NCBI GenBank assembly: GCA_018304465.1
Contig: JAGVWC010000009.1
Location: 96,001 to 160,000 of the forward strand
Length of the DNA: 64,000 nucleotides
Source: Candidatus Iainarchaeum sp.
GTDB lineage: Archaea; Iainarchaeota; Iainarchaeia; Iainarchaeales; JAGVWC01
Direction: 5' to 3'
Every line of letters begins with the position of its first letter. Positions within the stretch are counted from its first letter, which is position 1. The notes beneath the pieces were generated by a model. The model made no database searches, was not told the DNA's origin, and saw only the letters and a list, made by a program, of their open reading frames with translations. The position numbers and the translations under genes are program-made. Of the stretch, positions 16,485-56,266 are shown piece after piece.

Positions 16485-16494
16485 ATATATAAAA
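16485..16494 (-). promoter_or_regulatory. TATA box upstream of the candidate major pilin
   Basis: TTTTATATAT on the minus strand about 50 nt above the ATG; GGTGA SD at 16446-16450. Confidence 0.6.
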
Positions 16495-16518
16495 CTGATG
16501 GGAAAGAAGGAAACCGTT

Positions 16519-27118: not shown

Positions 27119-30100
27119 ATGGCGATTCTGCAGACATTATCGGAATGGTATGCCAAGGCAGAAGACAAGTTTTTTTCGACCTTGGATTGGCTGGATTCCA
27201 AAGGAGTCCCAGTGTACGCGTACAGCAACGCGTTGGAATCCAGGGGAATTCCTTCTTTTCCCGTCACGGTTTGCCTGATTGTATTGCTGTTGTTTGGTTT
27301 GGCGTGGCTTTTGTTCTTGCCCGCGGCCAGCGGAACCACCTTGGATTTGGGTTTAACCGACCAGGGAGAAAACGCGTTGTCGGGCGTATCCGTCAAGGTT
27401 CTGGATGAAAGCGGCAAAAATATTTTCGAAGGAACCAAAAACAACGGGGATTCGATTGCGCTTTCGGGAGTCGTGGGAAAAGAATTGTCGGTGCTTGCGT
27501 CCAAAGACGGTTTTGATCCCGCATCCACGAAAATACGCGTGCGAAGCGAAAACGAAAGCGTTTCATTGATGCTGCAAAAACAATTCATTCCCGTGGTCGC
27601 CCAAGTGCGATTCGTGGATTCGATTACGGGGGTTCCGATTACGAACGCCGCGGTTTCTTTTTCCTGGCAGAATCTGAACCAGACCGCAACCACGGACGCC
27701 AACGGTTTTGTCACGTTAACGGGTTTTCCCGGAAACGAGGATATTTTGGTGGCGGTCACGTCGGATAATTACGAGTCCAAGCAAAGCACGATTCGGCTGT
27801 TGGACGGACAAAAACAAAGCATTCCCTTGGTTCCAAAGCAAAGCGCGCAATTCGGAAACGCGAAAATCATCGTTAAAGTATTTGAAAAACAAACGCAGTT
27901 GTCCCTCGATGACGCGCACGTCGTGCTGTTGAATCCACAATCGAACGCGAGTTATTCCGAAGGATCCACGCAAGACGGACAATTCATCGCGGATCTGCCC
28001 AAAGGCACCGTGTTCGTCGCGCGGGTTTCAAAAGGCGGGTATGTCAAATTCGTTTCCGCCCAGCAAACCGTTCGCGACGAGGAAATGCAATTGAACGTGG
28101 AGCTGGTCAAAGGCGGAACCAAAGTTCGGGTCACGGTCCAGTCCAAAGAAAGCAGTTTGCCGCTGGCGGGCACCTTGGTGTCATTGTACAAAACCGACGG
28201 TTCACGGGTCGAAGAACAATCCGCGCCGTTTAGCGGAACCGTGGATTTTTCGGGATTGCAACCGGATGAAAATTATTTCGTCGGCGGTTATTTGACGGGG
28301 TTCGTTCCGGCGCTCGAGTTTTTTTCGCCGTTTGAAACCAACGAATTGACGTTGGAATTGGAAACCGAAAGCACTTCGAACATGGCCAAATTCAACGTGT
28401 TCGTCACGGGTTCGGACGGTCTTGCGGGAAACAACGCGGGCGTATCTTTTTTCGAAGTGATCAACGGGTATACGATTCCCACGGGTTTGCCAACAGTAGT
28501 CACGGAGTACGACGGATACGTGTCCATCAAGGCGCCGGTTGGAAAAAACATTCTTGGCCGCGCGTCAAGAGGACTTGAAACCGGGGACGCGAACAAGATC
28601 GTCGCCTTGGGAGAAAACAATGTTGCGATTCGCATGAAACTCACGGACACCGCCAAGCGACTGCGCGTACTCGGGTTTGACGGAAACCCCGTAGTCCAGG
28701 CATTCTTGCACGTCGAATCCCCGTCCAAAGAAGTGTTGTTTGACGGAAACATCGGGGACGACGGCAGTATTTTGTTTGACGCCAAAAAAAGCGATTCCAT
28801 TAACGTCACGGTTTCCTTGCCGGACGGAAACGTGTTTTCAAGCCAGGAAATAGTCAAAGGAAAAAGCGAAGTCATCGTGCGGTTAAAACCCAACAACACG
28901 GACGCGCTGGCTCCGCCCATCAAATTTTTGGGACTCGAACAATCGGATGGCACCGTGGTGCAAAGCCTCACGCCGGGAACCGAATATTGGGCGAAGTTCC
29001 AGATCGACTGGGTGGAAGGACAATACCGCGGCGGCGTGCATGTGCGCATCGGAAACGACAACGAACCGTTCGCCGAATCCGACGATGTCGGAATCATGGG
29101 TTTTGACGCCGGCGGGTTTTCGTCGTTCGCGTATTCGCGTTCGTATTCCCCGCTTCCGTCCCCCGGAAACGAATCCCTCGATCTTCGCAACAAAGGCGAA
29201 GCCGGCCAGTACAACAAATGGGCGGAGATTTATTTTGACAATCCGAAAGGAACCCAGATTATCCGCGTGAAAGTCAAAGCGAAAGAAACCATTTCCAAGC
29301 AAACCGTTTTTCTGCATTACCGCGCGTGGTCTTTGGTCGGAACCGCGTATCACCGGTCTCCGGAAGACCCGGAATTAAAGAACGAACAATTCTCGAATTC
29401 GAAAACCGCGTTGTACGCGCAGACGAACGCGGAAACCCTGTCCGTGTTTTCGACACAGCCCGACTGCCAGGGAAAAGCCTGCGCCACGTTCACGATCGTT
29501 TCAAGCGACGGGGAAACGGTTCAAAAATCCGATTTCACGTACGCGGCGCGTGGACGCGTCTACGCGATCGAAGCCACGATTCGAAGCCAGCAAGCCATGG
29601 GCGCGCTGATCAAAGCGACGACCCCCAAACAAAAACCAAAATTGTTTTTTACGGGAAGCGAAGTCGAGAGTTTCACGCAGTTCATTGACACGAATTCCAC
29701 GCAAACCGCGATGGAAATCAACGATTTAAGCGTGCTTGAAAACGTCGAGCGAAAAGCCCGCATTTATTTCAAACCAGTCCAGGACGGCCCCGCGACGATT
29801 CACATGGAGTTTTTGGGCGAGGACGTCATCGTCAAAGAGGATTTCTTTTTCAATGTCGGCGAGGACAAAACCTTGTTCGTGGCGGTGGAACCCGGAATCG
29901 TTAATCTGGGTTCTTCATTCAAAGTCATCGTAACGGACGACAAGAACAAAGGAGTCGAAAACGCCACGGTGCACATCCGCGATAATCTTAACGCGATCGC
30001 GTCAAGCATTGTCGGCAGTTCGTCGTTTGGAATGGGTCGCGGCGGAGAATACGGTTTTGGAACCACGATGGGCGCGGGAGAATTCACCGCTGAGGTATCC

Positions 30101-33100
30101 GCGCCGGGTTACGAGCCGAAAACGGTTTCGTTTAGCATCAGCGCCAATGACGCGCTCAGATTGCCGGAAGAAATTATTTTGAAGATTCCGATGGGACAGC
30201 CCACCGCCAATATGGCCGTTGATTTGGAGAATATTTCCGCGGGAGTCATCCGCGATATTTCAACCGAAGTCCAGCAAAACGGTAGCTGGCCGTACGAGTT
30301 GTCCTTAAACGCGGGAACGGTTTCGAGTTTGCGCCAAGGACAAAAAGGAAAACTGGATGTCACGGGAACGTTTGCCGGGGACAGCAATCGCGTGGTGCAA
30401 GGCGAAGCCGACGTAATCGTGAAAGGATACGTCACGGGCAAATATCCGGCGATCGCGTCCACGCACGTGATTGTGTCGTATAACCAGCCGTTGGATCCGC
30501 ATTGTCTGGTGTTCGAACCCAAGGAATTGACCGTGTATTTGGCCGCCAACGCGCCGTATCCCGGCGTGGATGGTCTCTTAAGCCCGAACAAGTTTTACTC
30601 GGATTACTCGAAATACAGCGCGTCGTACGCGCCGTATTATTCGAATACCCAGGACCAGTCGAATTACAATTCCCAGTTAAACCAAGGCCAATACGGCGCG
30701 TTGTATGACCAGTACAACACCAATGGCCAGATCAATTCGCAGATGGATCCGCGGTATTCACAGTACAACGATCCGGGATATACTCAAAACGGATCGCAGT
30801 TGTACGGCGGATCGTATTCCCAGCCCAGTAATTATTACGCGCCGTATTCGAACGTGTACGAGGATTACGATAACCAGCAAAAAGAACTGGAAATTCAGGT
30901 CAAAAACAATTGCGGCGTGGCACTGAACCTGACCGGCAAAGTTGTGGCCAAGCAAGGCGGAAACACGGACCCGTTTATTCAGGTAACGGCGCCGCCGCTG
31001 GTGTTGCAACCCAATGAATCCACGACCACGACGATTTCTGTTAGAAACCTGCGCGATCGTATCGTCAGCCGTCAGGAAACCCGAAACTTCGACATAACGT
31101 ATGCTTCGAACGCGAACCTCGCGACGCTTCCCTTGCATGTCGTGCTGTGGGATTCGCGATACGCCTTGGCGATGCGCGACAACATCGTCATGTATTTGTC
31201 CCAAGGCGCCAAAGGCGAGCCCGTGATTTCGGCCGAACCGATTTTCGTTCGCAACGTGGGGCTTCAGGACATTGAAAACTTTAATATTTTCCTTTCCGGC
31301 GACACGTATCAAAATGGCGTGGACGTGCGGATCACACCCAGCGGAGACGTTCCGATCCTAGGACGAAACCAGGTGATTTTTCCCCCCAAGATGCTGGTCG
31401 CGGAACTGCGCGGCGGAACCGACAAAGGCCGCTTGATCCGCGCGCAAATCATCGCCACGGGAATGATTAACGGAAAAGAAATGGAACTTCGGCGCGCCAA
31501 TGTGTGGATCAATGTCAGTGCGTACGAATGCCTGCGGATTTCGCCGGCGGAATCCCTTGATTTCGTCAGTCAGGAATCGCGCATCGGAACCATTGACAAG
31601 AAAATCAAGGTGCGAAACACCTGCGAAGAAGCCGTGCGCGTCGCCGACATCCAACCCAACAAATTGGGCGCCAACGAGGTTTCGATTGTTCCGATCGCAA
31701 GCGATATTCTCGCTCCTGACGCCGAAGCGGAGTTTTTGGTGCGCGTCGTCAAACGCCAGGATTACAAGAGCCAGAACCTGAATTTTTCGGTTGTTGGTCT
31801 CACCACGGTGTCGCGAAAATTCATCGGGTCCAATCGTCTTCATGCGCTCGTGGAACTCGGTCAAACCGCGGTGTCCACGGGGGTCTCGACCGAAGCCTAC
31901 ACGATCAACGTGTGCAAGGAAGACGGAACGATTTCCGCGGAAACCCGTCAAGTCAAATTCCCCAAAGTCGCGTCTACCGCCAATTGTGACAAGGCATATT
32001 GTGACGCGGAACTTGCTGCCGAATACTTGTTGAAAAAACTGGATACCAAAATCGCCCAGGCGCGCAGCGCGATCGGATACGGAAACGGTGAAGTCATGAA
32101 TTTTTCGGATAACTGCATCGTGACCGCACAAAACCCCGTGTGTTCGTTCGGACAACTGGACCCAAAGATTCCGGAAACGTTTGACTTGTACCTGCAAAAT
32201 GACCGCTTGTCCACGGACCTGTTGCAAAAAACGATTTCGGAAAAAGGAAGCGGAGAAATCAAGAATTATCAGGTGAATTATTGCGCCGGAAGCCGCTGTG
32301 ACGCCCAGGCGATCGCCGCCACGGGCTACCCCAATTTGTTGATGGTAAGCGACAATATTCAGGGCTGCGGTCACTTTCGGGTTTCCATTGACGGCGCCGC
32401 GTTTGTGAACCAGAACCAGATTCGAACGGATGGATTCACGTTGGCCATTAACGTGTCGAATTACGCGGTGACCCCGGAGTGCGTGAACAAGATCCAAAAC
32501 GTGCATAATTTCCTGCCGATCGACAAAACCCTGACCGCAAACAACGCGTACGGAACAATGATGGGAATGGCGGAAGCCGAAACCAAATTGCTGCCGCTTG
32601 CGGAATCGTTTGCCAAGGAGTTTTACGGAACAAGCGACGGACGTTTTTCGGAAAACAGCCAGGGAAACAAAGTACACATTGAAACCGGCGAAGTTCCCGG
32701 CGGAATTGTTAAAATCGGTTTGGACCCGCAGGGAACCGCAACCGATCCCAAAACGATTACCGCGACGATTAACCGCAGCATCGAAGGCGTGGATTTGACT
32801 CAAAACAACCAAAACGCGTTGTTCAAGGAAGCCGCGAACGCGTTTTCGGCTCTCAAAAGCCGCCAGATTCCGCTTGGAAAAGGATGTATTTCCCCCAACG
32901 AGGATTATTTCGTGTTGGGTTCCGCGGCCAAACTCGGGGACTTGACCGTTACCGGTCCTGACAAAATCGATGTGTTGCCGCAGTACGAAGCCTGCATTGA
33001 TCTGATCGTGAATTCCGAAATCCGAGAACAAGTGCGCTTGGAAACGAACGCCGAAGAATTGCTGCAATCAAGCAATGCGTTTGCGGAAATACTGTTAAAG

Positions 33101-33805
33101 AAAAAAACCGATCAGTCCTTGATAAAACCCAGCGACGACATCGTATTGGATGAGAATCCTGCGAGCAAAAAATACACGCAAGCGTTCCAATTGTGCGTCA
33201 AAGGAAGCGAATACTTCCAGTTTTCGGAATCCGCGTCCAAGATCAAGGTTTTGGCGCAATCCACCTTGGATACCGTGCGCAGAAGCAAGGAAAAAGAAAT
33301 CGGCTTTCAGGCCTGCGGAATTCATCCGTATGATTTGGTGAACAAGCTGAACACGCTGGAACCCGGAAAAGAATATTACGCGACCGTGGGCTGGAAAGGC
33401 GATCCCAATGCCGTGACCTTGTCCGCCGTGATCAACGGAATGGCCGAAAAGAAATTGTTATCCAAAGAAAACACGTTGACCGGTTCCGGCGTGGATGTCG
33501 CCAAGCAGGTTCCGGTTCAGGATGAAATCAAAAAACAAAACCTCGCGTCGATTCTCGGTTACTGGCCGGGCGGCGGCACCAAGGTGGCTAGCGCGTATCT
33601 TCCGACGTGTGTAGCCGTTTCCGCGGTCTGCAATGGTTTTAGAACCCTGGGACTCGGCGGATGGCTATGGGGCCCCATGTTTGACTGCGGATTACCCGCG
33701 TTGTGGGCGATTTCCCCGCAAATCGGTTTGGAAGGCGCGCGCAACATGATTGAAAACGCGTTTGGTTCCTGCTGGGTCCAAGCACCACGCCAACGGACCC
33801 GTTAA
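27119..33805 (+). CDS. Giant surface protein 1, N-terminal part (Cna-B/carboxypeptidase-regulatory-like Ig repeats)
   Basis: Start placed at 27119 by exact register with the paralogs (Y11, E15-D16); one N-terminal TM; repeated 'V.D..G.P...A.V......TD..G' beta-sandwich motifs; continues after a -1 shift. Confidence 0.88.
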   Translation: MAILQTLSEWYAKAEDKFFSTLDWLDSKGVPVYAYSNALESRGIPSFPVTVCLIVLLLFGLAWLLFLPAASGTTLDLGLTDQGENALSGVSVKVLDESGKNIFEGTKNNGDSIALSGVVGKELSVLASKDGFDPASTKIRVRSENESVSLMLQKQFIPVVAQVRFVDSITGVPITNAAVSFSWQNLNQTATTDANGFVTLTGFPGNEDILVAVTSDNYESKQSTIRLLDGQKQSIPLVPKQSAQFGNAKIIVKVFEKQTQLSLDDAHVVLLNPQSNASYSEGSTQDGQFIADLPKGTVFVARVSKGGYVKFVSAQQTVRDEEMQLNVELVKGGTKVRVTVQSKESSLPLAGTLVSLYKTDGSRVEEQSAPFSGTVDFSGLQPDENYFVGGYLTGFVPALEFFSPFETNELTLELETESTSNMAKFNVFVTGSDGLAGNNAGVSFFEVINGYTIPTGLPTVVTEYDGYVSIKAPVGKNILGRASRGLETGDANKIVALGENNVAIRMKLTDTAKRLRVLGFDGNPVVQAFLHVESPSKEVLFDGNIGDDGSILFDAKKSDSINVTVSLPDGNVFSSQEIVKGKSEVIVRLKPNNTDALAPPIKFLGLEQSDGTVVQSLTPGTEYWAKFQIDWVEGQYRGGVHVRIGNDNEPFAESDDVGIMGFDAGGFSSFAYSRSYSPLPSPGNESLDLRNKGEAGQYNKWAEIYFDNPKGTQIIRVKVKAKETISKQTVFLHYRAWSLVGTAYHRSPEDPELKNEQFSNSKTALYAQTNAETLSVFSTQPDCQGKACATFTIVSSDGETVQKSDFTYAARGRVYAIEATIRSQQAMGALIKATTPKQKPKLFFTGSEVESFTQFIDTNSTQTAMEINDLSVLENVERKARIYFKPVQDGPATIHMEFLGEDVIVKEDFFFNVGEDKTLFVAVEPGIVNLGSSFKVIVTDDKNKGVENATVHIRDNLNAIASSIVGSSSFGMGRGGEYGFGTTMGAGEFTAEVSAPGYEPKTVSFSISANDALRLPEEIILKIPMGQPTANMAVDLENISAGVIRDISTEVQQNGSWPYELSLNAGTVSSLRQGQKGKLDVTGTFAGDSNRVVQGEADVIVKGYVTGKYPAIASTHVIVSYNQPLDPHCLVFEPKELTVYLAANAPYPGVDGLLSPNKFYSDYSKYSASYAPYYSNTQDQSNYNSQLNQGQYGALYDQYNTNGQINSQMDPRYSQYNDPGYTQNGSQLYGGSYSQPSNYYAPYSNVYEDYDNQQKELEIQVKNNCGVALNLTGKVVAKQGGNTDPFIQVTAPPLVLQPNESTTTTISVRNLRDRIVSRQETRNFDITYASNANLATLPLHVVLWDSRYALAMRDNIVMYLSQGAKGEPVISAEPIFVRNVGLQDIENFNIFLSGDTYQNGVDVRITPSGDVPILGRNQVIFPPKMLVAELRGGTDKGRLIRAQIIATGMINGKEMELRRANVWINVSAYECLRISPAESLDFVSQESRIGTIDKKIKVRNTCEEAVRVADIQPNKLGANEVSIVPIASDILAPDAEAEFLVRVVKRQDYKSQNLNFSVVGLTTVSRKFIGSNRLHALVELGQTAVSTGVSTEAYTINVCKEDGTISAETRQVKFPKVASTANCDKAYCDAELAAEYLLKKLDTKIAQARSAIGYGNGEVMNFSDNCIVTAQNPVCSFGQLDPKIPETFDLYLQNDRLSTDLLQKTISEKGSGEIKNYQVNYCAGSRCDAQAIAATGYPNLLMVSDNIQGCGHFRVSIDGAAFVNQNQIRTDGFTLAINVSNYAVTPECVNKIQNVHNFLPIDKTLTANNAYGTMMGMAEAETKLLPLAESFAKEFYGTSDGRFSENSQGNKVHIETGEVPGGIVKIGLDPQGTATDPKTITATINRSIEGVDLTQNNQNALFKEAANAFSALKSRQIPLGKGCISPNEDYFVLGSAAKLGDLTVTGPDKIDVLPQYEACIDLIVNSEIREQVRLETNAEELLQSSNAFAEILLKKKTDQSLIKPSDDIVLDENPASKKYTQAFQLCVKGSEYFQFSESASKIKVLAQSTLDTVRRSKEKEIGFQACGIHPYDLVNKLNTLEPGKEYYATVGWKGDPNAVTLSAVINGMAEKKLLSKENTLTGSGVDVAKQVPVQDEIKKQNLASILGYWPGGGTKVASAYLPTCVAVSAVCNGFRTLGLGGWLWGPMFDCGLPALWAISPQIGLEGARNMIENAFGSCWVQAPRQRTR

Positions 33806-35148
33806 AAGCCCAGGCGCAAGAAGACATCGTGAATGGCGCCGTGGTTTCGGTCGGAGCAAAAACCTTATTGGGCGCCAGTTCCGAATTGTATTACGGAAAT
33901 TATCGTTCGCCACTGCCGATTAACAGCGCGGCCCGCCAAATCTCCAATGACATCATTGACCAGGTCGTCACGGAAAAACTCGCCCCGATCGGAACCCCGA
34001 TCAAGGATTCTTCCGGCGCCGTAATCGGAGCCGTCAAAGCCAGTGATCACGCGGAATTCCGAAACATCTTAAAAGACAAACTCGAACCCGCGATCAAGGA
34101 CGCGTTGGAAGAAAAAGGCGTCAAGAACCGCGTTCCGATTCCGGGCGCCGACAAAGTGCGAATCGCGTTAAACGATGAAAAACTCATCAACGAAGCCACG
34201 AGCACGGCGATCACGAAAGCCTCCGCGGATCTGGAAAAACCGCTGTCCGATTGGACGGTGTCGCATTCGAGCGTCTTCCAGGATCCCGTCAAGCTCGCCA
34301 AGCAAAGAGAACTCGTTTCAAGCGTCGTGGATTTATTCGGACAGGATCTTCCGCAAACCGGAAACGTCGTGGACCGGACCACGCTTGAACAAGTGTGGAA
34401 CCAGCGCATGCTCGACGACTTGAAGTCTTACGGTTTGAAAGAAACCGACTTGGTTGGAACCAAATCGGTACAGCGACTGGTCGAGGAAAAAGTCCGCGCC
34501 GGCGTGATCACGGAAGGAATGCCAGTCGGGAAAAAAGTCGCGATTCAGCCGGTGTACAAATTGTTGGATCCGAAGAAAACCTACGCGAGTGTCATCGGAG
34601 AAATTTATTCTAACGCGGAATTAGCCAAAAAACTGGATACGGGCTTTAAGGACCGTGCCGGAAAATTCGCCAAGGGATTGCTCGAAGGAAAAACCGGCGA
34701 AATCGGCGGGTTCACCCGATTCAGAAAATTCCTCGGTTCGATGGCGCGGGGTCTTGCGTGCGGTTTCATTTCGAACGCCGCGGGTCTTTGGATGTACAAA
34801 CAAGGATTGGCGGAAAACCTGAATCTGCCCGATGATAAGATCTCGGTTAAGGGACCGGCGAAAGTCAGTCCGACCGGTGGGTTGGTCGTGGACGGAACCG
34901 GAAACATCAACACGGACGCGGAGCTCTTGCGCGGACACACCTACAAAATCGTGTCGAAAAAAACCGACGACAAAACGCGTTCGATTGAAATCACGAAAGT
35001 CGCGAATATTTCGGAGCTGTCAAAGGTCCCCAAAGACGCCTGGCTTAACACGGATTGCACCGGAAAATTCGGGCAAAAAGACTTAAGCGAAGTCCTCAAC
35101 GCAAAGGCGCTTGTGGGCGTAAACCTCTCGTCCACGAGAGCGTCATAA
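33754..35148 (+). CDS. Giant surface protein 1, C-terminal part (probable frameshifted continuation; fused about 2676 aa)
   Basis: Frame is open from 33754 and overlaps the upstream ORF; one extra T at TTT GGT T^CC gives AFGFLLGPSTTPTDPLKAQAQEDIVNG; no clear RBS for the GTG at 33829. Confidence 0.7.
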   Translation, partial: KRVWFLLGPSTTPTDPLKAQAQEDIVNGAVVSVGAKTLLGASSELYYGNYRSPLPINSAARQISNDIIDQVVTEKLAPIGTPIKDSSGAVIGAVKASDHAEFRNILKDKLEPAIKDALEEKGVKNRVPIPGADKVRIALNDEKLINEATSTAITKASADLEKPLSDWTVSHSSVFQDPVKLAKQRELVSSVVDLFGQDLPQTGNVVDRTTLEQVWNQRMLDDLKSYGLKETDLVGTKSVQRLVEEKVRAGVITEGMPVGKKVAIQPVYKLLDPKKTYASVIGEIYSNAELAKKLDTGFKDRAGKFAKGLLEGKTGEIGGFTRFRKFLGSMARGLACGFISNAAGLWMYKQGLAENLNLPDDKISVKGPAKVSPTGGLVVDGTGNINTDAELLRGHTYKIVSKKTDDKTRSIEITKVANISELSKVPKDAWLNTDCTGKFGQKDLSEVLNAKALVGVNLSSTRAS

Positions 35149-35158
35149 AAAAGAGGCA

Positions 35159-38359: not shown

Positions 38360-38449
38360 CTTTTTCGGTCTTTTTTTCGGCAAAAAGATTTGGCGACAAT
38401 CAACCGCGGAAATTAAATACTTCTTTCTTGTTTTATCTTTCGAAAGCGT

Positions 38450-39952
38450 ATGAATCAGCGGGCGTTCAATTTATTCACGGCGTTGGTTTCGTTTGTCCTC
38501 ATCATGCTGGCCGTGCTCATGGTCAACACCATGACGCGAACCGAAGAACGCGCCATCGCGACGGTCGCGGATCTGCAACAGCAATCCGAAATGCAGACGA
38601 TTGCGGACCTGCGCCGCGGAGACGCGTTTCAGTACGTGGTGTTTCGGATCCGGCATTTGATGGAAGAATATTTTTTCCGCACTGACGTGTATATTCCCGT
38701 GCAAAAAGGGAGAACCTGGGACCAGATGGTCTATGACGATTTCGCGTGCGCGCGCATGGGCGTGAATTGCGGAAGCGATCCGGGAGACGCGGATCGGGTA
38801 CAGTTGGCGAACTGGATTTCGGACGCGATCACGGGAATGCTTTATGAAGGCGAGTCGCGCGGACCGTATCTGGTTTCGTTGGAAGGATACGGCGCGGAAG
38901 GATTGATCGCAAAACCCAATTTCGAACGGGCCTTGACCGAAGCATTGCGATACGAGGATGCGACCGGAACGGATCCGCATCCGGTGTTCGAGCTCGTGGA
39001 CTGCGCGTATGACGAAACGGATCCGAATTGGCGTCGCGATTGTCCCGGCGGAACGTTTTACATCAATTTGCGTTTTGACAAAATCGACAACGCGACGTAC
39101 GAAGCCTTGCCGCGCATCGTGGTGACGGATTACAACGTGACGGGCGCGGTACTCAAAACCAGCGTGTTGCCGCGTTCGAATCTGCGCGTGTTCGTTCCCT
39201 TGCGCGTATTCCAGACATTGGCGCGATCCAAGGAAATCGCGGACAAAACCTTGTTCACGCCGCACATGGAAACCACGTTGTCGAACATGCATATCGGCGT
39301 GTGCGATGTGAGCAGTTGTGCGATCGAACGCAGGTTGAGTTCTCCGCAGCCGTCGATTCCGATTCCGGCTGGAACTGGCTGCGCGGGAACCACGGATACC
39401 GCGACGTATCATTTTGCCAAACCCGGCGCGCAGCCGCTGCCGTTGCCCACGGTTCCGGCGTCGATCATCAATTTTGATCCGAACTCTCCTGCGGATATGG
39501 TGGAAAAACTCGCGGATTACGCGCGCCGATGGATTTGCGAAACCGCGCGGGTACCACTGGCCGCCGAACTTGTTTCGGATCCCGCGGAAAGAGATTTGAA
39601 ATTGTTGACGAATCCCGCCGACAACTGTGTGTTCGTGAACACGACGCTTCGCCCAAACGCCGAGTCGCGTCCGATTATGATGCGCTGGGGCGGTGTGAAA
39701 CAATTCCCCGCAAACCAGGCGTTTTGCACGATGTTTGGCACCGCAGGCAGTTCCGCGTACCAGACGTACGCGAGTTTGTCGTTTTTGGAACAAAACGAAA
39801 ATTACAAAGTGCGGAAAAACTCGAGCGGAACCTACAACGTGCGGATTTATCCGTCGTGGCCGACCAAACCGAAACCGAACTTCGGAACGTGTTATGACGA
39901 CTGCGATCCGGATGATTTGACGATCTGCGGAAGCGTTTCGTGCAATCCTTAA
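38450..39952 (+). CDS. Large pilin-like/adhesin protein with class III-like signal
   Basis: MNQRA/FNLFTALVSFVLIMLAVLMV followed by an extended helix and a Cys-rich globular part; AT-rich upstream region. Confidence 0.75.
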   Translation: MNQRAFNLFTALVSFVLIMLAVLMVNTMTRTEERAIATVADLQQQSEMQTIADLRRGDAFQYVVFRIRHLMEEYFFRTDVYIPVQKGRTWDQMVYDDFACARMGVNCGSDPGDADRVQLANWISDAITGMLYEGESRGPYLVSLEGYGAEGLIAKPNFERALTEALRYEDATGTDPHPVFELVDCAYDETDPNWRRDCPGGTFYINLRFDKIDNATYEALPRIVVTDYNVTGAVLKTSVLPRSNLRVFVPLRVFQTLARSKEIADKTLFTPHMETTLSNMHIGVCDVSSCAIERRLSSPQPSIPIPAGTGCAGTTDTATYHFAKPGAQPLPLPTVPASIINFDPNSPADMVEKLADYARRWICETARVPLAAELVSDPAERDLKLLTNPADNCVFVNTTLRPNAESRPIMMRWGGVKQFPANQAFCTMFGTAGSSAYQTYASLSFLEQNENYKVRKNSSGTYNVRIYPSWPTKPKPNFGTCYDDCDPDDLTICGSVSCNP

Positions 39953-40059
39953 GCAAACCATTAAAAACGTTAAAACCCATGAAATTGCAGTTTTCCCGAG
40001 AATGGGCGGGAAAAAGATTAAAATACACCATTAATCTACTATAATGAGAAAGTGAGTCC

Positions 40060-47874: not shown

Positions 47875-47941
47875 GCCAACAGGCTTTTATAGTTCTTTTT
47901 GCCTTTATTTCCACACATACGCGTGTCCAAAAGGGTTTTTC

Positions 47942-48547: not shown

Positions 48548-48614
48548 GCCGAATTTTGAGCATATATTAATAAATACAAAAATCATAATTTCGTAGCGTT
48601 AGCGAGGGGACCGA

Positions 48615-51600
48615 ATGGGTATTGTGGATGGGATTCGCGGAGTCTACTTCTCGCTGGAAGATCGATATTATTCTTTTCTGGATGCATTGGAGTCCAAAGG
48701 AATTCCGGTGTACAAAGTCGTGGATCCAATTGATTCCGTGGTTCCGTCGTTTCCGTTATTTGTATTGATTGTTCTTTTGTTGCTGGGGGGATTGCTCTGG
48801 TTTTTGGTGTTGCCAAATCTTTCGTTTGGAAACGCGCAGTTAAACGTCAAGGTGCTGGATTTTTCGGATAGTCCGATTTCCGGGGCCTCGGTCACCGTGA
48901 TTCGAAACGGAACCCAGACCATTGGCGTATCCGACGCACTGGGAAAAACCGCGTTTGATTTTCCCAAAGGAAGCGAAATCGCCGTCTCGGTGTCGCGTGA
49001 AGGATTCGATAATTTTGAGGTGCCCGCTTTTGTTTTGTCCGAAAGCCGCGAAGTCACCGCGCGATTAAGCACGGCGGGAAGCGCTTCCGGCGAAGCCGTG
49101 ATTCGAACGATTCGCCTGTTAAGCCAGTCCGGCCAGCCCTTGGTCGGCGAAGACATTACCGTTTCTTTTTCGTGTTCCAATTCCGCGGCAAATCCACCGG
49201 CAGAAGTCACGGTGACGACCGGAGAAGTCAAAGTCACGGAACCCGGTAATTGCGGCGGTTTGGTGGCCCAAATTAGGTCCCGAAATTTCAAGGAAGTCGC
49301 GTCTTTTCCCGTGTCGCAACTGGTCAACACCGCGTATTTGATTTCGAATTCGGCGGCGTTGGAAGAAGACCGCGGAACCATTGAAGTGTTGGTGACGGAA
49401 AACAATCAAGCCGTTTCCGATGGCTTGTCGATCGTATTGTATCCTTTTGAAAGCGATATTTCCGTGGACAGTGCGCCCGTGCAAAACGGAAAAGCCGTGT
49501 TTTCGAACGTGGCCTTCGGAAAGTACGTGGTGAAAAACCGCGGAACCAGTGATTTTGCTCCGACGTCGGCCACACTGACCTTGTCTTCCAAGCGTCAAAC
49601 GGTTTCATTGGCATTGCAAAAAAACGTGGCCGGAAAAATTGTTGTCAAAGTGATTGATGCGGATACGCGAAAACCCGTTCCGAATTCGACGGTTTCCTTG
49701 CGCATCGGAAACGACGAAGTCGAGAAAAAAACCACGAGCGACGATGGAAATGGTTCGCTTGAGTTTTTCGTTCCGCGGGACACGACCTACAATGTGGGTG
49801 TGAGTCATCCGGATTATTGTTTCGAAACCAGATCGGACCTGGGAATCAACAAGAGTTATTCGATTGAATTGGAGCCGTTCACGGCGTCCTGCGGCGGAAC
49901 CATTGTCGTAAAAGTCGTGGACCAGGAAGGCATTCCGGTACAAAACGCGTTGGTGTCATTGGCCAGCGAACAACAGTTTTTTCTTGGAGCGGGACAAGAA
50001 ATATCGGATTTGAACGGCGTCGCCCGTTTTGCGGGAATCAAAGCGGGAACCTACACCGCGTTTGCGTTTAAGGGAACCAGTTCCGGCTGGAGCGATCCCA
50101 AGTTTTTCAACCGGAAAAAAGGCGAAACCGAACAAGTGGATTTGATTGCGACACTGCAGATTCCAAACGGAATCGTTCGAATCCAGGTCGTTGACAAGGA
50201 AAACCGCCCGGTTCCGTTCGCGACGATTACGTTTGTGGACGCGTTTGACAATCAGATCGTAGGCGGAGGCGCAAAGCCGGCGGATTCCAACGGCGTGCTT
50301 TCATGGGAAACGCGCGCGGACAAAACCGTGTACGCCATTGTCGAAAAAGAAGGGTTCGCGTCCGTTGCATCCCAATGGATCGAAGTAAAGCCGTCCACGA
50401 TCCAGGAAGAACAGGTTCAGTTGTTGCCCCCCATCACGCAGTTCGAAGTCGAGCTTGTGGGATTGTTTTCGGGAAATCTTTCCACGCCTCCCGCGGGAAG
50501 CCCGACCGCGAGTCTTGCGGCCGGACAGGAATACGTCGCGCGTTTTAGAATCAAGATTCCGTCGGATCGGTCGTTTTCTTCCGATCACCCGTTTAACCAG
50601 GTCGGAATCCATGTGCGAACGGGAACCGAAGGCATCATGGAAAAAGATTTCATTTTCTTAAAAGAAACCAACGCGCCTTCGGCTTCCGTTGTGCGTTCCA
50701 CGTCGTTTACCGGAAAATACGTTTCGGATCTTGCCGCGGTCACGAGTTCGGACGCCAAGTGGGCGAACATGACATGGACCCGACCGCGCGCCGACGTCAT
50801 CATGGCACAAATCGTGGTCAAAGTCAAGGAAAACGCGGCGCTTGGAAAAAAGCTCGATATTTTCTATCGTGCCTGGGGGGGCCAAAACGGCGATGTCGTG
50901 CGTGATCCCGCGGACCAGACGGGCGGCGGACAAGAATTGTATTCGGACGCCAAAGACGCGAGTTTTACGGTCGGCGTCGGCACGTTGTGCGACGAACGGT
51001 TTTGTTTTGACGCAAGCATTTACGATCAGCGCGACGCGTTGCGCATGCCCGTGACGGATTCGTTCGCGGCGCGAAACCTAGAAAATTACACGTTAAGCTT
51101 CGCGATCGGAAACACGTCTAAAATGGATACGGATACGTACCGCAACGCGGAACTGCGGCTCGAAGCGATCGAGGAAAATTTGTTGTTTAAACAGTACACG
51201 ATTTTTGACGCGGCGTCCGAGGGAAGCAAACCGATTACGGGCACCGCGAATGCCGCGGCGTTGCCGCGAATTACGATTGGAGATCTTTCACCCGGCCGGC
51301 GGATTTCCGGAGACATCGCGTTTATGCCCAAAATCCCGGGAACACACACGATTGATTTTAGGATCGTGGACACGGATTTGGGCCAGATCGTGTTTTCCAA
51401 ACAATTGTCGATTATTTCGATTGCGGACAACGATTTTGTCATCGTGGTTTCGCCGGAAAAGCTTTCGCCGGGAATCGAAAACCCGGTGATCATTACCGTG
51501 ACGGACAAAGTCACGGGTTTGCCGGTCAAAGACGCGTTTGTCCGGTTACGGGACAAATTCAAGAACATTTTGTCGACCAGCCAGACGAATTCGCTTGGAA

Positions 51601-52637
51601 TTGTCGAAACACGGTTGCCCGCGCAGGCCCCGGGAGAAATCCTGGATATTGAAGTCGAACGCGTCGAATACAATACATTGATCAAGAAAGTCACGGTGGA
51701 CGGAGAAATTCTCACGCTTTCCCCCGAACGACTGGGTTTTTCGGTTAATCCGAAGAGCAAACCAACGGACGCCAAAGAATTCAAGATTTCAAATGTCGCG
51801 CCGTTTGAGCTTGCGATCGAAAGCGTTTCGCTTTCGGGAAAATTTTCGGGTTTGCTTGATTTGGATTCCACCAATAACGCGTTGCATTCCTGGGCTGGCG
51901 CCAAAATCAAAGCCAATGATTTCGTTTCGATTTCGGTTCCCGTAAAAACATCCACACAGGCAACCGATCTGGAAGCCTTGACGGATTTAAGCGGTGTTTT
52001 GACGGTGCGGGTATCCAGCCAGGGTCATGCGTGGGATTTCGAGATTCCGGTTCAGATTACCGTTGGTCTTGGCGGCGAAGTGGATGATCCCGCGTGTTTG
52101 ACGTTAAGCCAAACCGAATGGGTGTCAAGTTCCCAGGGAAAACCCATTGTCCTGGAATTTTCGATTCAAAACAATTGTTCGATCGCGGGAAAACCCGTGG
52201 ACATTTCAAATGTCGAAACGCGCATCGCTTGGATCGGAAACCAAACCGGCGAGTTCGAATTATCCACGGATGTCAGCAATTCGATTTTGCGATCGGGTTA
52301 TTTCTTGACGATTTTGCCCAAACTGGAAGCCGGAAAAAGCGTGGTCGCGCGATTGACGTTTACGCCTAATGCCCAGGTCATTGGATCCACGAAAGCAACA
52401 GTGGAATTCCAGGCCACGAACCCGACGGATTCGGCACCCCAGACTTTGTCCGCCCAGCTTTCCGCGGATTTGGATGTCGTGAATTTGTTGTCGTGTGTTT
52501 CGTACGACAAGGAATATATCGAAATGCAGGCGGAAGAAACATTTAATCCCAAGGTTTCGGCCGTGGGCTTTGGCGTGTCCCAAAGCATTAATCCGATCAC
52601 GGGTCGGGTCACGGCGGGAGACGATAATTCCGATTGA
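48615..52637 (+). CDS. Giant surface protein 3, N-terminal part
   Basis: EDRYYSFLDALESKGIPVY..VPSFP + TM; GAGGG RBS; collinear with giant 2 (GIHVRTG, KWANM, YRAWG, GLGGEVDDPACL). Confidence 0.9.
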   Translation: MGIVDGIRGVYFSLEDRYYSFLDALESKGIPVYKVVDPIDSVVPSFPLFVLIVLLLLGGLLWFLVLPNLSFGNAQLNVKVLDFSDSPISGASVTVIRNGTQTIGVSDALGKTAFDFPKGSEIAVSVSREGFDNFEVPAFVLSESREVTARLSTAGSASGEAVIRTIRLLSQSGQPLVGEDITVSFSCSNSAANPPAEVTVTTGEVKVTEPGNCGGLVAQIRSRNFKEVASFPVSQLVNTAYLISNSAALEEDRGTIEVLVTENNQAVSDGLSIVLYPFESDISVDSAPVQNGKAVFSNVAFGKYVVKNRGTSDFAPTSATLTLSSKRQTVSLALQKNVAGKIVVKVIDADTRKPVPNSTVSLRIGNDEVEKKTTSDDGNGSLEFFVPRDTTYNVGVSHPDYCFETRSDLGINKSYSIELEPFTASCGGTIVVKVVDQEGIPVQNALVSLASEQQFFLGAGQEISDLNGVARFAGIKAGTYTAFAFKGTSSGWSDPKFFNRKKGETEQVDLIATLQIPNGIVRIQVVDKENRPVPFATITFVDAFDNQIVGGGAKPADSNGVLSWETRADKTVYAIVEKEGFASVASQWIEVKPSTIQEEQVQLLPPITQFEVELVGLFSGNLSTPPAGSPTASLAAGQEYVARFRIKIPSDRSFSSDHPFNQVGIHVRTGTEGIMEKDFIFLKETNAPSASVVRSTSFTGKYVSDLAAVTSSDAKWANMTWTRPRADVIMAQIVVKVKENAALGKKLDIFYRAWGGQNGDVVRDPADQTGGGQELYSDAKDASFTVGVGTLCDERFCFDASIYDQRDALRMPVTDSFAARNLENYTLSFAIGNTSKMDTDTYRNAELRLEAIEENLLFKQYTIFDAASEGSKPITGTANAAALPRITIGDLSPGRRISGDIAFMPKIPGTHTIDFRIVDTDLGQIVFSKQLSIISIADNDFVIVVSPEKLSPGIENPVIITVTDKVTGLPVKDAFVRLRDKFKNILSTSQTNSLGIVETRLPAQAPGEILDIEVERVEYNTLIKKVTVDGEILTLSPERLGFSVNPKSKPTDAKEFKISNVAPFELAIESVSLSGKFSGLLDLDSTNNALHSWAGAKIKANDFVSISVPVKTSTQATDLEALTDLSGVLTVRVSSQGHAWDFEIPVQITVGLGGEVDDPACLTLSQTEWVSSSQGKPIVLEFSIQNNCSIAGKPVDISNVETRIAWIGNQTGEFELSTDVSNSILRSGYFLTILPKLEAGKSVVARLTFTPNAQVIGSTKATVEFQATNPTDSAPQTLSAQLSADLDVVNLLSCVSYDKEYIEMQAEETFNPKVSAVGFGVSQSINPITGRVTAGDDNSD

Positions 52638-55600
52638 CGATTAAAACCGCGGATTGCGGCGGTGCCACGTCGTTTTCGCTTGAATCGGAACTCAAGTTGT
52701 CGCCAACCGAGTTTTCGCTTTCGGATAACGGCGCTCAGCAAATCGTGATTACGGCCGATGACCGCGTTCCGGGTCAGTACGGCGTCAAAGTGCTGGTCAA
52801 AGGCGCGGGAGCGGTCACGACCAAGCAAATCAAAACGATTCCGGTCGTATTGGCCCCCGCGCGCGATGAATGCGTGTTGTTGACCAAATTTGAATACAAC
52901 GTGTTCCGAAACGAAGATGTTCCGGGATCCGGAATCGATACCGCGAAAGTCATTAATCAGTGTTATGACAAACCCGTGCAAGTCATGATTGATCGGCATT
53001 CGTTAGACGATGCCATGGCGGAAGGACAACGATGGGCGGCAATGGGGCTTGCCATGGGAATGATGGGCCAAATGAACCAGAATGGCGGGTTGTTTAGCGG
53101 TTTGTTTGGCGGGTCCAGCAATGATTCGAACGCATCTCCGGGGTCCGGCAGCAATTCGAACACGCCTCCGGCTTGGAAAGAGTTCAAGGACGCGGGAACC
53201 GTATTGGTCGCGAACGGAACCGGCGGATTTGTTTCGGCCAATGCCTATAAAGACAACGCGGGAAATGAGTTCGTGTTTGAAAACGGCATGTATTATCCAG
53301 TACGGCAACGATCCGACGGAAGATATGAAAAGGTTCCAAACGGAGCCCCCGTTGCCTCAAACGGATCCGTGGGTTCGACGGCCACCGGTCCGAACGCAAG
53401 CGTCATTGCGCAAAAAGAATCCGAAATCGCGCAGTTGAACAGTCAGATTTCATCCGAACAAGCGAGCGCGACGAGTCTGGGTTGCCCCAATGGAAAGCCC
53501 GAGTGCCAAACCAGTATCGATCGCATTCATAGTCTGAACGTTCGGATCAGTTCTTTGGAGTCCGAAATCAGTGGATTGCAAACCACACCGCTCACGGGAC
53601 GGTTTTCATTGACGGGTTATCAGTTCTTGCCGTTTGCAGGCCAGGGTTTCTTCGGTTCCGGTTCAACGAATTCGGACGCGGAAAACGAATGTAGTTTTGT
53701 GGATTCGGATGGAACGCTTTCCAAGAGCCGGCAAGACGCGGACAGCGAAATTTCGTCTTTGCAAACGTTACCGATGTTCGCGAGTCTTTTGGGCGGCGGA
53801 AACATGGGCAATGCGTTTTCGCAGGCCATGATGATGTATGCCATGGGAACCGCGCAAGCCTACAATGCCCAAACCGATGTTTGCATCTGGACCGTGCAAC
53901 GCGACGTTCAATTGGGTTCCGGTGGACTAGGCGGTGTACTGGATAATTTGGCGAGTTTTTTCACCGGAAACCAGGCCAAAGGCGTTTACAAATTATTGGA
54001 TTCCACGGGAATTGACGACCGGGTGTTTTCCGGCGTCAGTGTGGAAGAATACCGAAAACCCATTGTGTCGCCGCGCAAAGACAATCAGGAATTAAGCACG
54101 GAAACGCGGTTCATCAAGGTTTCAAACGACGACGGTTTGGTCCAGGCAGACGCCTTGAATCCGTTGTTTGCCATGCTGGCGATTAACGGCGTTCGCCACG
54201 TGTATTTGCCTGAACAAATCTACGAAAGCCAAAAGCCCAGCGTGTTAAAGGAAGGCCCCAGTCAAAAGCTTTCATCGAAGTTTCATATTCAATTGAATTC
54301 GTATAAGCCCGAACCGGATTCCGTGATTTCTCCAGAGATCGGCAACTGCCAGATCGGACAAAAAATCGGTAGCACGGGTCCGAACGCGGTTCCACGCCTC
54401 AAATTCGCGTGGGGTTGGAACGAAATCAATTTCGATTCGTGCGATTCGGATAATCCGGAGTATATTTATTGTGACGCCACGCAGTTTTCGATCGCGTTAT
54501 TGAAAAAAATGGAAGTGTTACGCGAATTCACGACCGTGAACGCCTTGACGTTCGAGTGTCCATCCGCAGTCAGCTCCGTGACCCCGACCGAACAGGCGTT
54601 GTCCAAAACGGGTCTTGACATCGGCGTGACCAAACTTGAAATCGTGCGAAACCAATTGGATGCAAACATGGTGGCCACGGTTGAAAATTCGAACAATGTA
54701 TCGGGTTCCGCGGAATTGACCACGATTATTACGAATACCGCCAATGGAAAAGTCGAAAAAACCTGTATCGAAACGGTTTCGTTTCTATCGAAAACCACGT
54801 CCGGTTGTCTGGTGCAAAATCTGGCCCCGGGCGAATACCGCGTCAAAGCGCTGTTGGGCGCCGTGTCATGCACGGGCTGCCAAAACGCCGTGAGCTTTAA
54901 CGATTCTTTGGAAGACACGTTTACCACGGGCTTTGAAGGACTTGCGTGCGCCGCCAACTGGACCAATACGAGTCATTTGGAAGAAATCATCGCGGCTACC
55001 GAAGGCGCGTCCAAATCATTGGTGTATCCGGCGGGCTTTGACAAGGAAAAAATCGTCAAACTTGCCAGTTTTAGGGCGCACTTGATGAAAGACGGGTATT
55101 CAACCGGTTTTCGAAAAGATTTCCATTCGTATGCTTTGACGCAATCCTTGTTCCAGACGCCTGAGTTTTATTCGCAACCCGATGGGTTAGGCGAATATTT
55201 CTCGGATCCCGCCAAAATGCAGTTTGAATACTTCGGCAGTCCGAATGGAACGCTTTCAGAACCCGGCATTTACCAAGTGGACCTCGACGTGAATTTTTCG
55301 GATCAGCACATGGCATGGTTCGAGAACTCGACCCCCGTCGCCACGATTTTGGTGACCATGGAAAAAACCGGGGACGCAAAGCCCGCGAGCCCGTTTTATT
55401 ATTATCCATTGGACGGCGCATTGGGATTGCAAAACGGCCGCGTGGGATACGGAACCAACTTCGAGTTGGAAACCCCGGACAAACCCATCGTGATTGCGGC
55501 AACGGTTGACCGCGCGTTGTTGTCGCAATCGATTCCGGGAAGCATTCCGGCGGCAACCGTCAAAGCATATAAAATCACGGACTTTGCGACGTTGAATGTT

Positions 55601-56266
55601 TCAAACCGTGGATTGTTGTTTTCCATTGATTCGCAAACCGATGAATGGAAACTCGCGCCAAGCCTCGCGACCCCGGTGATCATGAAAGTATCCGCGACCA
55701 GTACCGCGGACGCGTTTGGATTTTATTCTTTGGAAGTGGATTCTCAACCGCAAACGAATCTTCCGTTCTTGTCGCGCTGGAGCGGAATCTCGCCGTCTTG
55801 CAAGGACTTTGCCGGAGACGGTTTGGATAAGTATTCGGAAACCCCGGATATTTCGGGGGTCAATGCCCATTGTTCGGCGTTGGGTCCCAACAGCGCGGTG
55901 TCATACGGATTCGAATGGTGTAACCGCAAGTTGCCGGGAACGGTTTCGTTGCAATCCGTGTTTTTTACGCCCACTGAAAGCAGCGCGGTATTGCGTTTGA
56001 CGGGTCAAAACGAATCCGTTTCGTTTATCGGTTTACAGGGAAGCGGTCAAAACGTGGAATTGGCCGGAGTCCCCGGAATGGCATTCAATAGTCATTCGAA
56101 CGCGATTTCTTCGGTTCAGGATGTATTAGACCTGGTAGCGGAAGGCCAAGTGTGTGTCACGGGATCGGAAAACGCGGTTCGAACCGAGTTTTTCTGGAAC
56201 CCCAAAGTGGTGTTGGATGGCTTAGCGCAGGTACGCGACGCGACCACGCAGGCATGCATCCAATAA
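52628..56266 (+). CDS. Giant surface protein 3, C-terminal part (frameshifted continuation; fused about 2550 aa)
   Basis: One extra T at GAT AAT T^CC gives DDNFRLTIKTADC, which aligns with TNFFTVRNNC of giant 2; shares TGP.A...L...W..C..CD, L.KD.YS and G.VC....W.N.K motifs with the giant 2 C-terminus. Confidence 0.85.
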   Translation, partial: FRLTIKTADCGGATSFSLESELKLSPTEFSLSDNGAQQIVITADDRVPGQYGVKVLVKGAGAVTTKQIKTIPVVLAPARDECVLLTKFEYNVFRNEDVPGSGIDTAKVINQCYDKPVQVMIDRHSLDDAMAEGQRWAAMGLAMGMMGQMNQNGGLFSGLFGGSSNDSNASPGSGSNSNTPPAWKEFKDAGTVLVANGTGGFVSANAYKDNAGNEFVFENGMYYPVRQRSDGRYEKVPNGAPVASNGSVGSTATGPNASVIAQKESEIAQLNSQISSEQASATSLGCPNGKPECQTSIDRIHSLNVRISSLESEISGLQTTPLTGRFSLTGYQFLPFAGQGFFGSGSTNSDAENECSFVDSDGTLSKSRQDADSEISSLQTLPMFASLLGGGNMGNAFSQAMMMYAMGTAQAYNAQTDVCIWTVQRDVQLGSGGLGGVLDNLASFFTGNQAKGVYKLLDSTGIDDRVFSGVSVEEYRKPIVSPRKDNQELSTETRFIKVSNDDGLVQADALNPLFAMLAINGVRHVYLPEQIYESQKPSVLKEGPSQKLSSKFHIQLNSYKPEPDSVISPEIGNCQIGQKIGSTGPNAVPRLKFAWGWNEINFDSCDSDNPEYIYCDATQFSIALLKKMEVLREFTTVNALTFECPSAVSSVTPTEQALSKTGLDIGVTKLEIVRNQLDANMVATVENSNNVSGSAELTTIITNTANGKVEKTCIETVSFLSKTTSGCLVQNLAPGEYRVKALLGAVSCTGCQNAVSFNDSLEDTFTTGFEGLACAANWTNTSHLEEIIAATEGASKSLVYPAGFDKEKIVKLASFRAHLMKDGYSTGFRKDFHSYALTQSLFQTPEFYSQPDGLGEYFSDPAKMQFEYFGSPNGTLSEPGIYQVDLDVNFSDQHMAWFENSTPVATILVTMEKTGDAKPASPFYYYPLDGALGLQNGRVGYGTNFELETPDKPIVIAATVDRALLSQSIPGSIPAATVKAYKITDFATLNVSNRGLLFSIDSQTDEWKLAPSLATPVIMKVSATSTADAFGFYSLEVDSQPQTNLPFLSRWSGISPSCKDFAGDGLDKYSETPDISGVNAHCSALGPNSAVSYGFEWCNRKLPGTVSLQSVFFTPTESSAVLRLTGQNESVSFIGLQGSGQNVELAGVPGMAFNSHSNAISSVQDVLDLVAEGQVCVTGSENAVRTEFFWNPKVVLDGLAQVRDATTQACIQ

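Follow-up and report, generated by a model that had tools for sequence, protein, structure and literature searches.

The stretch of DNA analysed here (the window) comprises 64,000 nucleotides from the DPANN archaeon Candidatus Iainarchaeum sp. and encodes three giant surface proteins, giants A, B, and C, that share a conserved leader of ~45 residues ahead of their single membrane helix. Sequence comparisons identify this leader, which had been picked out in an earlier note on the same DNA, as a phylum-wide, unnamed N-terminal module within a conserved cell-surface island, and one that appears far more general than the three giants of the window. It can be regarded as the family signature of the 2,400–3,400-aa stalk-and-head surface proteins of the Diapherotrites/Iainarchaeota. 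The reading favoured here, although tentative and held with slightly more doubt than belief, is that the leader is not cut off but serves the protein as a docking tag on the cytoplasmic side of the membrane, with a pilus-like machine as the candidate partner. In the literature, as far as the sources were available, the leader is not described, and the sole related account is one sentence on Candidatus Forterrea in the accessible part of PMC5905446, which mentions five large, membrane-anchored proteins encoded in tandem with a proposed role in cell-cell interaction. By this description the Forterrea proteins are similar to the giants in being giant, membrane-anchored, tandemly encoded proteins of Diapherotrites; the account differs in that, within the same part, neither a leader nor a definition of the family is described, nor any connection with a pilus-type ATPase.

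Distribution and conservation of the leader

A distribution search of the kind proposed in the earlier note was carried out with a profile of eight leaders, which was scored against 1.84 billion representative proteins. The search revealed a phylum-wide presence, with 1,060 clusters matched at E ≤ 1e-3 and 635 at E ≤ 1e-10; among the matches listed, 141 of 150 begin at residue 20 or before, with protein lengths of up to 3,100 aa. Genomes were surveyed with a longer model of 133 positions that spans the leader, the helix, and the first domain. This model matched 210 of the 215 genomes of the window's phylum (Diapherotrites/Iainarchaeota by the source labels), four of them only weakly (E > 1e-6) and possibly through the immunoglobulin (Ig)-like part, and all 58 high-quality genomes. 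Most genomes hold 5–8 matches, often in tandem. The only source name given to leader proteins is 'carboxypeptidase regulatory-like domain-containing protein'. Two leader matches carry the NCBI label 'Candidatus Micrarchaeota', which may be a submitter label. For the ATPase encoded nearby, NCBI lists most of the close orthologs as 'Candidatus Diapherotrites archaeon'. Word-indexed searches found no match for the 75-aa leader among longer proteins and only two non-self relatives for region 1–90 of giant B, such that an exhaustive profile search was needed. A single-protein match to a related locus in a metagenome-assembled genome of Flavobacteriaceae was rejected as a chance match of an Ig domain.

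Within the genome of the window, a 50-column hidden Markov model (HMM) of the leader matched six of the 13,892 stop-to-stop frames, all of them giants (A, B, C, and the paralogs D, E, and F on contig C11), and no further frame was matched even at E ≤ 10. Since only the six giants are found, the leader match is not due to chance. Sequence searches of Pfam, NCBIfam, and PDB, which checked whether the motif is an already characterised domain or signal, gave no match covering the leader. Similarly, the leader model found no counterpart in a Foldseek search of PDB, and an ESM Atlas look-up of the leader returned scores of only 0.79, below the useful range.

The starts of the three giants (27119, 40060, and 48615) align without gaps from residue 1 to PVY33, as described in the earlier note. 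Giant C has one residue deleted before the [IV]PSFP motif, and in each giant this motif is followed by a single hydrophobic segment (Table 1). The residues Y11, E15, D16, L22, D23, P31, V32, Y33, P45, and S46 are invariant in an alignment of eight leader sequences. Among 85 long matches, E15 and P45 are present in every sequence (85/85), D23 in 84, Y33 in 83, and Y11 in 82; together with these last three, D16, S46, D37, P31, and Y19 are each kept in 80–84 of the 85. Leader positions 11–48 hold ~3 bits per column compared to ~1.4–1.5 in the ectodomain, a comparison that is biased because the 85 proteins behind it were chosen by leader score. The paralogs of this genome share 34–54% identity over the first 75–84 aligned residues (leader and membrane helix) versus 22–29% over their N-halves; for giants A and B, the first 75 residues are 47% identical while the ectodomains are 23–29% identical. 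Both measures agree with the earlier proposal that the leader is more conserved than the stalk.

Predicted structure and topology of the leader

An AlphaFold2 model of the leader, computed from a 38-row alignment with a predicted local distance difference test (pLDDT) of 90.4, contains a helix at residues 3–27, a turn, a second helix at residues 32–41, a turn at I-P-S-F, and the membrane helix at residues 46–68. The residues following the membrane helix vary (PAES, GPSA, PGSG, and others) and form a P/G/S-rich linker that leads directly into a β-strand, the first of the ectodomain, which starts 5–8 residues past the helix. The leader is net acidic (mean charge -2.6), and its lysine and arginine residues average 5.2 compared to 1.2 in the 27-residue stretch that follows the membrane helix. 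Due to this bias and the positive-inside rule, the leader is predicted to be cytoplasmic, which remains the most likely location, as the earlier note had supposed. The model and the profile together indicate that the leader is most likely the cytoplasmic head of a signal-anchor, made up of two short helices rich in conserved Tyr, Asp, Glu, and Pro and a near-invariant P-S-F turn.

One possible role for such a head is in-plane reinforcement of the membrane anchor or self-association, wherein the amphipathic, aromatic-rich helix 1 lies on the inner membrane surface, or the leaders bundle, to give a stronger anchor or a lattice of giants. Reading of the model and the profile places hydrophobic and aromatic positions 3, 7, 10, 11, 14, 18, 22, and 25 on one predicted face of helix 1, consistent with such a role, as are the anchoring of over 2,500 extracellular residues by just one membrane helix and the encoding of several paralogs in tandem. 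Lipid contact alone, however, explains poorly why the acidic residues E15, D16, D23, and D37 are invariant, and this role is considered unlikely.

Comparison with known signals

Pattern tests bear out the statement in the earlier note that the leader is not a Sec, Tat, or class III signal. A class III signal has a short basic leader with [KR]-[G/A/S] before the helix, whereas the leader is long, acidic, and presents [IVF]-P-S-F at this position; the small pilins of the same locus and its 500-aa prepilin do carry KGQ, RGQ, or [KR][GA]F. As a Sec class I signal, the leader would have an acidic n-region of ~45 residues and an h-region of ~20–22 residues, compared to the usual ~7–15. No RR column, as expected of a Tat signal, occurs in positions 1–48 of the 85-sequence profile.

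It has also been considered that the leader is a long, novel prepilin-type leader that is cut at the cytoplasmic P-S-F, allowing the giants to enter a fibre as giant pilins or tip subunits. The succession of a leader, ~20 hydrophobic residues, and a β-sandwich domain resembles that of archaeal pilins, 10 loci have a genuine large prepilin gene set among the giants, a pilus-type ATPase operon is linked (see below), and the genome has two A24 prepilin peptidases. A cut at P-S-F is nevertheless very unlikely: the canonical [KR][GAS] before the helix is missing from the giants in a locus whose own pilins and prepilin have it, and the hydrophobic helix at residues 46–68, although present, runs into the linker described above rather than into a globular domain. 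Furthermore, PDB profile matches to pilins and archaellins are insignificant (E 0.8–6) and confined to the hydrophobic stretch, and the peptidase genes (PF01478 matches of 56 and 48 bits) are on another contig, C6, with none in this locus.

The conserved signal-peptide extensions of giant bacterial adhesins, ESPR, YSIRK, and KxYKxGKxW, whose models we take to be PF13018, PF04650, and TIGR03715, respectively, provide another point of comparison. Similar to these extensions, the leader is a conserved stretch that precedes the hydrophobic core of very large surface proteins and exceeds the passenger in conservation. In contrast to the leader, which is acidic, spans ~45 aa, has a predicted fold, and precedes an anchor of 20–22 residues, the extensions are basic, 20–25 aa long, and located within cleaved Sec signals. 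The three models gave no match to the three leaders (E ≤ 0.1), to 38 leaders (E ≤ 5), or to the whole proteins in NCBIfam (E ≤ 0.01).

These likenesses suggest an explanation in which the leader is an extended export-control region, the archaeal counterpart of these extensions, that has no contact with a pilus-like machine. Such a region would tune targeting by the signal recognition particle, Sec, and YidC, set the speed of translocation, or secure the N-in orientation for an ectodomain of 280 kDa. The leader directly precedes the only hydrophobic segment of giant surface proteins, and long, domain-structured signal sequences (ESPR) are documented on giant autotransporters in the available part of PMC2805444. 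Leader genes located away from pilus genes, on C11 and in genomes without linkage, would also be expected from an export function. Other very large exported proteins of this genome, however, lack the leader, including giant-family paralog G (2,429 aa; L003:8719–16005; contig C11 35519–42808), which has a plain hydrophobic N-terminus. The presence in the giant family of a paralog without the leader suggests that the leader is a separable add-on. Plain hydrophobic anchors also start the second-module open reading frames (ORFs) D2 and E2 and a 1,535-aa protein of the window; since all of these proteins appear to manage with such anchors, export is, judging by their sequences, possible without the leader. 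In addition to its acidic, predicted folded nature and the unmatched models, a general aid to export leaves the near-invariant Tyr, Asp, and Pro positions and the restriction to one family unexplained. Consequently, export control is a doubtful explanation, if one to be taken seriously.

Linkage to a pilus-type ATPase

The giants of the window belong to a plus-strand gene series (24.2–56.3 kb) headed by an archaeosortase gene, and this series is divergent from a minus-strand operon for a pilus-type ATPase, a platform protein, and small pilins. Among 132 genomes with a completeness of 85% or more, 121 have one copy of an ATPase ortholog, with 47–72% identity over the first 495 residues; the 11 genomes without it are what a completeness of 85–95% predicts. 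Five genomes that have no ATPase ortholog and 6–8 leader matches (G123, G124, G141, G144, and G058) were rejected as proof that leader and ATPase are independent, as incompleteness accounts for them.

Linkage was counted in a sample of five near-complete genomes and one genome from each of 20 families, two of which were not evaluable due to a contig end. Of the 23 evaluable genomes, 16 (15 of 21 families) have a leader ORF that is encoded on the other strand and lies no more than 15 kb upstream of the ATPase start; in most linked genomes the distance is 0.9–3.9 kb. Among the other T2SSE-family genes of five genomes, none of 22 has a leader ORF within 15 kb upstream, and one has a leader ORF 10 kb downstream. 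A link of the giants to this ATPase clade, which the earlier note proposed to look for, thus holds for the 16 genomes, as compared to none of the 22 other genes, and does not hold for the remaining seven. The order archaeosortase, A-type giant, prepilin, B-type giant also recurs across families. The first giant after the archaeosortase gene is of A-type in 13 of 13 loci, and the giant after the prepilin gene is of B-type in 9 of 9. In 10 other loci the A-type giant adjoins a prepilin homolog, which has a classical [KR][GA]-F[TN]LFTALV start and follows the giant in nine loci and precedes it in L031; in the eight loci where a next giant was observed, the homolog lies between giants A and B. G084 and G151 share the gene order of the whole operon, from the ATPase through the platform and pilins to the 1,535-aa protein; in G179, the region examined holds only the ATPase, the platform, and two pilin-like genes. 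Taken as gene order, these results support a functional link of the giants to this ATPase machine.

A docking tag as the favoured reading

According to the reading favoured here, the leader would stay on the protein at the inner face of the membrane, where it would allow a common partner, conserved and present in single copy, to handle all the paralogous giants. The strongest candidate for this partner would be the divergent type IV pilus-like machine, composed of the ATPase with its special N-region, the platform, the small pilins, and the large prepilin. We infer all three elements: retention of the leader, its binding, and the identity of the machine as partner. A specific conserved partner is the most economical explanation because the leader is conserved across ancient paralogs, is restricted to one family, and is absent from other large exported proteins. 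Giants A and B represent ancient, separately conserved orthologous groups, and conservation of the leader in both, despite their diverged ectodomains, is more readily explained by contact with a conserved partner than by a simple hydrophobic signal. The conserved gene island makes the pilus-like machine the leading candidate.

There is precedent for docking of this type. Bitopic proteins of pilus and secretion systems dock to cytoplasmic machine parts by a conserved N-terminal segment; the N-terminal motif of PilN binds PilM, and the cytoplasmic domain of GspL binds the N-domain of GspE. Similar to PilN and GspL, the giants have a single membrane helix preceded by a conserved N-terminal segment, predicted to be cytoplasmic, and are encoded with a pilus-type ATPase and platform. 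In contrast to PilN and GspL, they carry an ectodomain of ~2,500 aa of adhesin-like repeats and occur as 5–8 paralogs; the likeness is drawn from gene layout, and binding to a partner is presumed for the giants.

Several points weigh against this reading. No linkage is seen in seven of the 23 genomes (G005, with only 9.3 kb available, G027, G029, G051, G073, G166, and G208), and in the complete genome G027 the leader and ATPase loci are ~440 kb apart. The genomes used to count linkage were not picked blindly, as shared contigs had already been seen, and related genomes are not independent observations. The earlier note held that finding the leader on proteins with no link to pilus genes would tell against its proposal, and this is partly the case: D, E, and F on C11 adjoin a pyruvate-dehydrogenase operon and lipoate genes. 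The conserved gene order may simply stem from joint regulation of genes in a cell-surface island. A net acidic leader is unusual for a cytoplasmic flank, and we know of no pilus ATPase that recognises a leader. A complex prediction for the ATPase N-region (300 aa, 23-row alignment) and leader residues 1–48 (38-row alignment) gave no answer (score 0.00, mark 0.32) and counts neither for nor against docking.

Large surface proteins can also be passengers at such loci. The available part of PMC4858521 reports that archaeal type IV pilus loci often encode large S-layer-like or adhesin-like proteins, which, as a further point against the docking reading, may only travel with the pilus genes. The window is similar to these loci in that genes for a pilus ATPase, a platform, and pilins are found together with genes for large surface proteins. 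It differs in that the large proteins covered in that part carry standard signal peptides, class III signals, or anchors at the C-terminus; the same part describes no leader of this sort, and a term search of the paper found neither 'Diapherotrites' nor 'Iainarchaeum'.

The docking reading can be extended. In a quite unlikely version, the leader would be a coupling peptide through which a phylum-specific type IV pilus-like motor, formed by the ATPase with its novel N-region and the platform, assembles, positions, or mechanically actuates 280-kDa surface 'tentacles'; the giants would either be incorporated as very large pilin-like or tip subunits or be pulled from within the cell. The hetero-oligomeric filament of three giants imagined in the earlier note finds nothing in its favour; the separate, ancient A and B groups would allow distinct roles and are not proof of co-assembly.

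The ATPase has further features. Its N-terminal 300 residues (22273–23172, minus strand) have a conserved Cys-x2-Cys near residue 26, and an AlphaFold2 model of this region (pLDDT 71) shows a β-rich start followed by a helical bundle. A Foldseek search of this model gave nothing at E ≤ 0.001, and no fold in PDB matched it significantly. After residue 495, the ATPase is split by an intein that contains a LAGLIDADG domain (~20164–21687, minus strand). The same insertion may be widespread, as suggested by the ~1,274–1,326-aa open frames of nine orthologs (G015, G081, G072, G165, G066, G188, G184, G009, and G106). A second, ordinary T2SSE-family ATPase (485 aa) is encoded with two membrane-protein genes at 1519–4700 (plus strand) of the window; it forms a separate pilus-type locus that has no leader genes beside it. 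The 500-aa prepilin-like protein has a bacterial-looking type IV prepilin start that lacks the usual Glu5.

The archaeosortase and its probable substrate

An archaeosortase homolog is found in the examined upstream flank of the ATPase in 18 loci, and in ~9 of these it lies 65–190 bp upstream of the A-type giant. The giants do not resemble substrates of exosortases or archaeosortases, as they have a single N-terminal helix and no C-terminal arrangement of motif, helix, and tail. By comparison, the members of the 1,535-aa protein family end with a conserved FNLPSLP, a helix, and a basic tail. This family is probably the substrate of the archaeosortase, and its C-terminus looks like an undescribed archaeosortase sorting signal. 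Action of the archaeosortase on the leader was rejected, both because this classical C-terminal substrate exists and because the topology does not agree: on a reading of the sequence, the Cys and Arg of the enzyme are at the outer membrane face while the P-S-F is at the inner face.

The giant proteins

Each giant has one N-terminal membrane helix and none at the C-terminus. The Ig-like repeats named in the earlier note are supported by Pfam, which identifies CarboxypepD_reg (PF13620) in A, B, and C with 78.7–93.4 bits (cut-off 32.3) and bMG3 and SpaA above their cut-offs in B; all three giants thus have the tandem prealbumin/Ig-like domains of fibrillar-adhesin-like repeat surface proteins. 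Similar to bacterial fibrillar adhesins, the giants combine an anchor, CarboxypepD_reg and Ig-like repeats, and a distal cysteine-bearing region. Unlike these adhesins, they use as anchor a membrane helix at the N-terminus that is joined to a conserved cytoplasmic module, instead of a sortase, LPXTG, or outer-membrane anchor. The internal motifs proposed to be shared are largely as described. KWA[EN] occurs at residues 700, 714, and 715 and YR[AG]W at 734, 750, and 751 of A, B, and C, respectively, and [YF]CD[AG] is found at A1627, B2005, and residue 612 of the second ORF of C. GVHVR[IT]G is present in A (639) and B (656), while C carries GIHVRTG at 664. Long Tyr/Gly/Asn/Gln-rich low-complexity inserts with a prion-like composition are found in A (~1290–1390) and B (~1300–1400 and ~1700–1800). 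Together the giants take up several percent of the 1.25-Mb genome (~24 kb here and ~28 kb on another contig).

The lengths of ~2550–2680 aa given in the earlier note hold as a single ORF in the window only for B; A and C each change frame by -1 and reach their lengths after correction. The second ORF of A is collinear with the C-terminal part of A-type orthologs elsewhere, which are uninterrupted (2,481–2,980 aa), and the two ORFs of C match the two halves of the intact paralog F. The frame breaks were checked in Logan contigs of four other runs, which have no other differences along the stretch. At 33771, the contigs of X1, X4, and X5 hold 33 letters between pieces that share one window base (net 34 nt), and X2 shows the same 33 letters as a loose end. 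At 52631, the contigs of X1 and X2 hold 45 letters plus one (net 46 nt). As both missing lengths are of the form 3n+1 and restore the frame, the real A and C genes are intact; read by eye, the 33 extra letters in A contain no stop codon in its frame. On the basis of these contigs, programmed frameshifting and pseudogenes in A and C were rejected in favour of assembly deletions in the window. Paralogs D and E (L002; contig C11 14581–26819) are each encoded by two genes, one for the N-module with the leader and one for a product that has a hydrophobic N-terminus of its own; this split is natural, unlike the false split of giant C.

Locus layout

The coordinates of the features are given in Table 1. 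A 306-aa membrane protein is encoded at 23304–24224, and the platform protein has loops at ~residues 165–300 and 515–645. The 748-aa secreted protein has no homolog in the other loci examined, and the 1,066-aa cysteine-rich protein is not present at the same place in them.

Table 1. Features of the 64-kb window (positions count from its first letter).
Feature	Position	Strand	Details
1,535-aa secreted protein, end of ATPase operon	6253..10860	-	C-terminal FNLPSLP motif, membrane helix, basic tail
Five small pilin-like genes and one conserved ORF	13051..17013	-	N-termini KGQ/TGQ/RGQ etc., then hydrophobic stretch
ORFs of the pilin-like run	16519-17013, 15899-16438, 15049-15591, 14375-15307, 13872-14447, 13051-13881	-	
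Platform protein	16956..19325	-	T2SSF domain, ~9 membrane helices; matches in 20 loci, 33-55% identity
Pilus-type (T2SSE/FlaI-like) ATPase	19312..23172	-	Clade-specific N-terminal region of ~300 aa; intein at ~residues 496-1003
Exosortase/archaeosortase-family membrane protein	24249..24779	+	176 aa; head of giant-gene strand; TIGR04178, 44.2 bits (cut-off 23)
748-aa secreted protein	24822..27068	+	C-terminal membrane helix and basic tail
Giant A	27119..35148	+	Two frames in window (27119-33805 and 33829-35148); real gene ~2,687 aa
Giant A leader, residues 1-48, ends IPSFP	27119..27262	+	Leader HMM, 72 bits
Giant A single membrane helix, residues 49-67	27263..27319	+	Hydropathy scan
1,066-aa cysteine-rich protein between giant A and prepilin gene	35159-38359	+	Cysteine-rich acidic repeat TIGR02232, 47.9 bits
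500-aa type IV prepilin-like protein, between giants A and B	38450..39952	+	N-terminus [KR][GA]-F[TN]LFTALV
Giant B, intact, 2,604 aa	40060..47874	+	Ig-like/CarboxypepD_reg repeats
Giant B leader, residues 1-48	40060..40203	+	AlphaFold2 helices 3-27 and 32-41; pLDDT 90
Giant B membrane helix, residues 49-67 (AlphaFold2 helix 46-68)	40204..40260	+	Hydropathy scan, AlphaFold2
201-aa membrane protein	between giants B and C	+	ORF order
Giant C	48615..56266	+	Two frames in window (48615-52637 and 52634-56266); real gene ~2,565 aa
Giant C leader, residues 1-47	48615..48755	+	Alignment
Giant C membrane helix, residues 48-66	48756..48812	+	Hydropathy scan

Implications

To our knowledge, there is no member of the Diapherotrites/Iainarchaeota with a studied cell surface, and the giants are obvious candidates for contact with hosts or with surfaces. 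The leader offers a sequence signature with which the family can be found in metagenomes as well as a peptide bait for its partner, and the conserved island of ATPase, platform, pilins, archaeosortase, prepilin, and giants lends itself to testing as a single apparatus. A docking or sorting role, if real, would make the leader a new type of archaeal targeting signal beside the Sec, Tat, class III, and archaeosortase signals. Should the coupling-peptide version hold, the island would encode a powered attachment organ of host-dependent cells, unlike any described archaeal surface structure.

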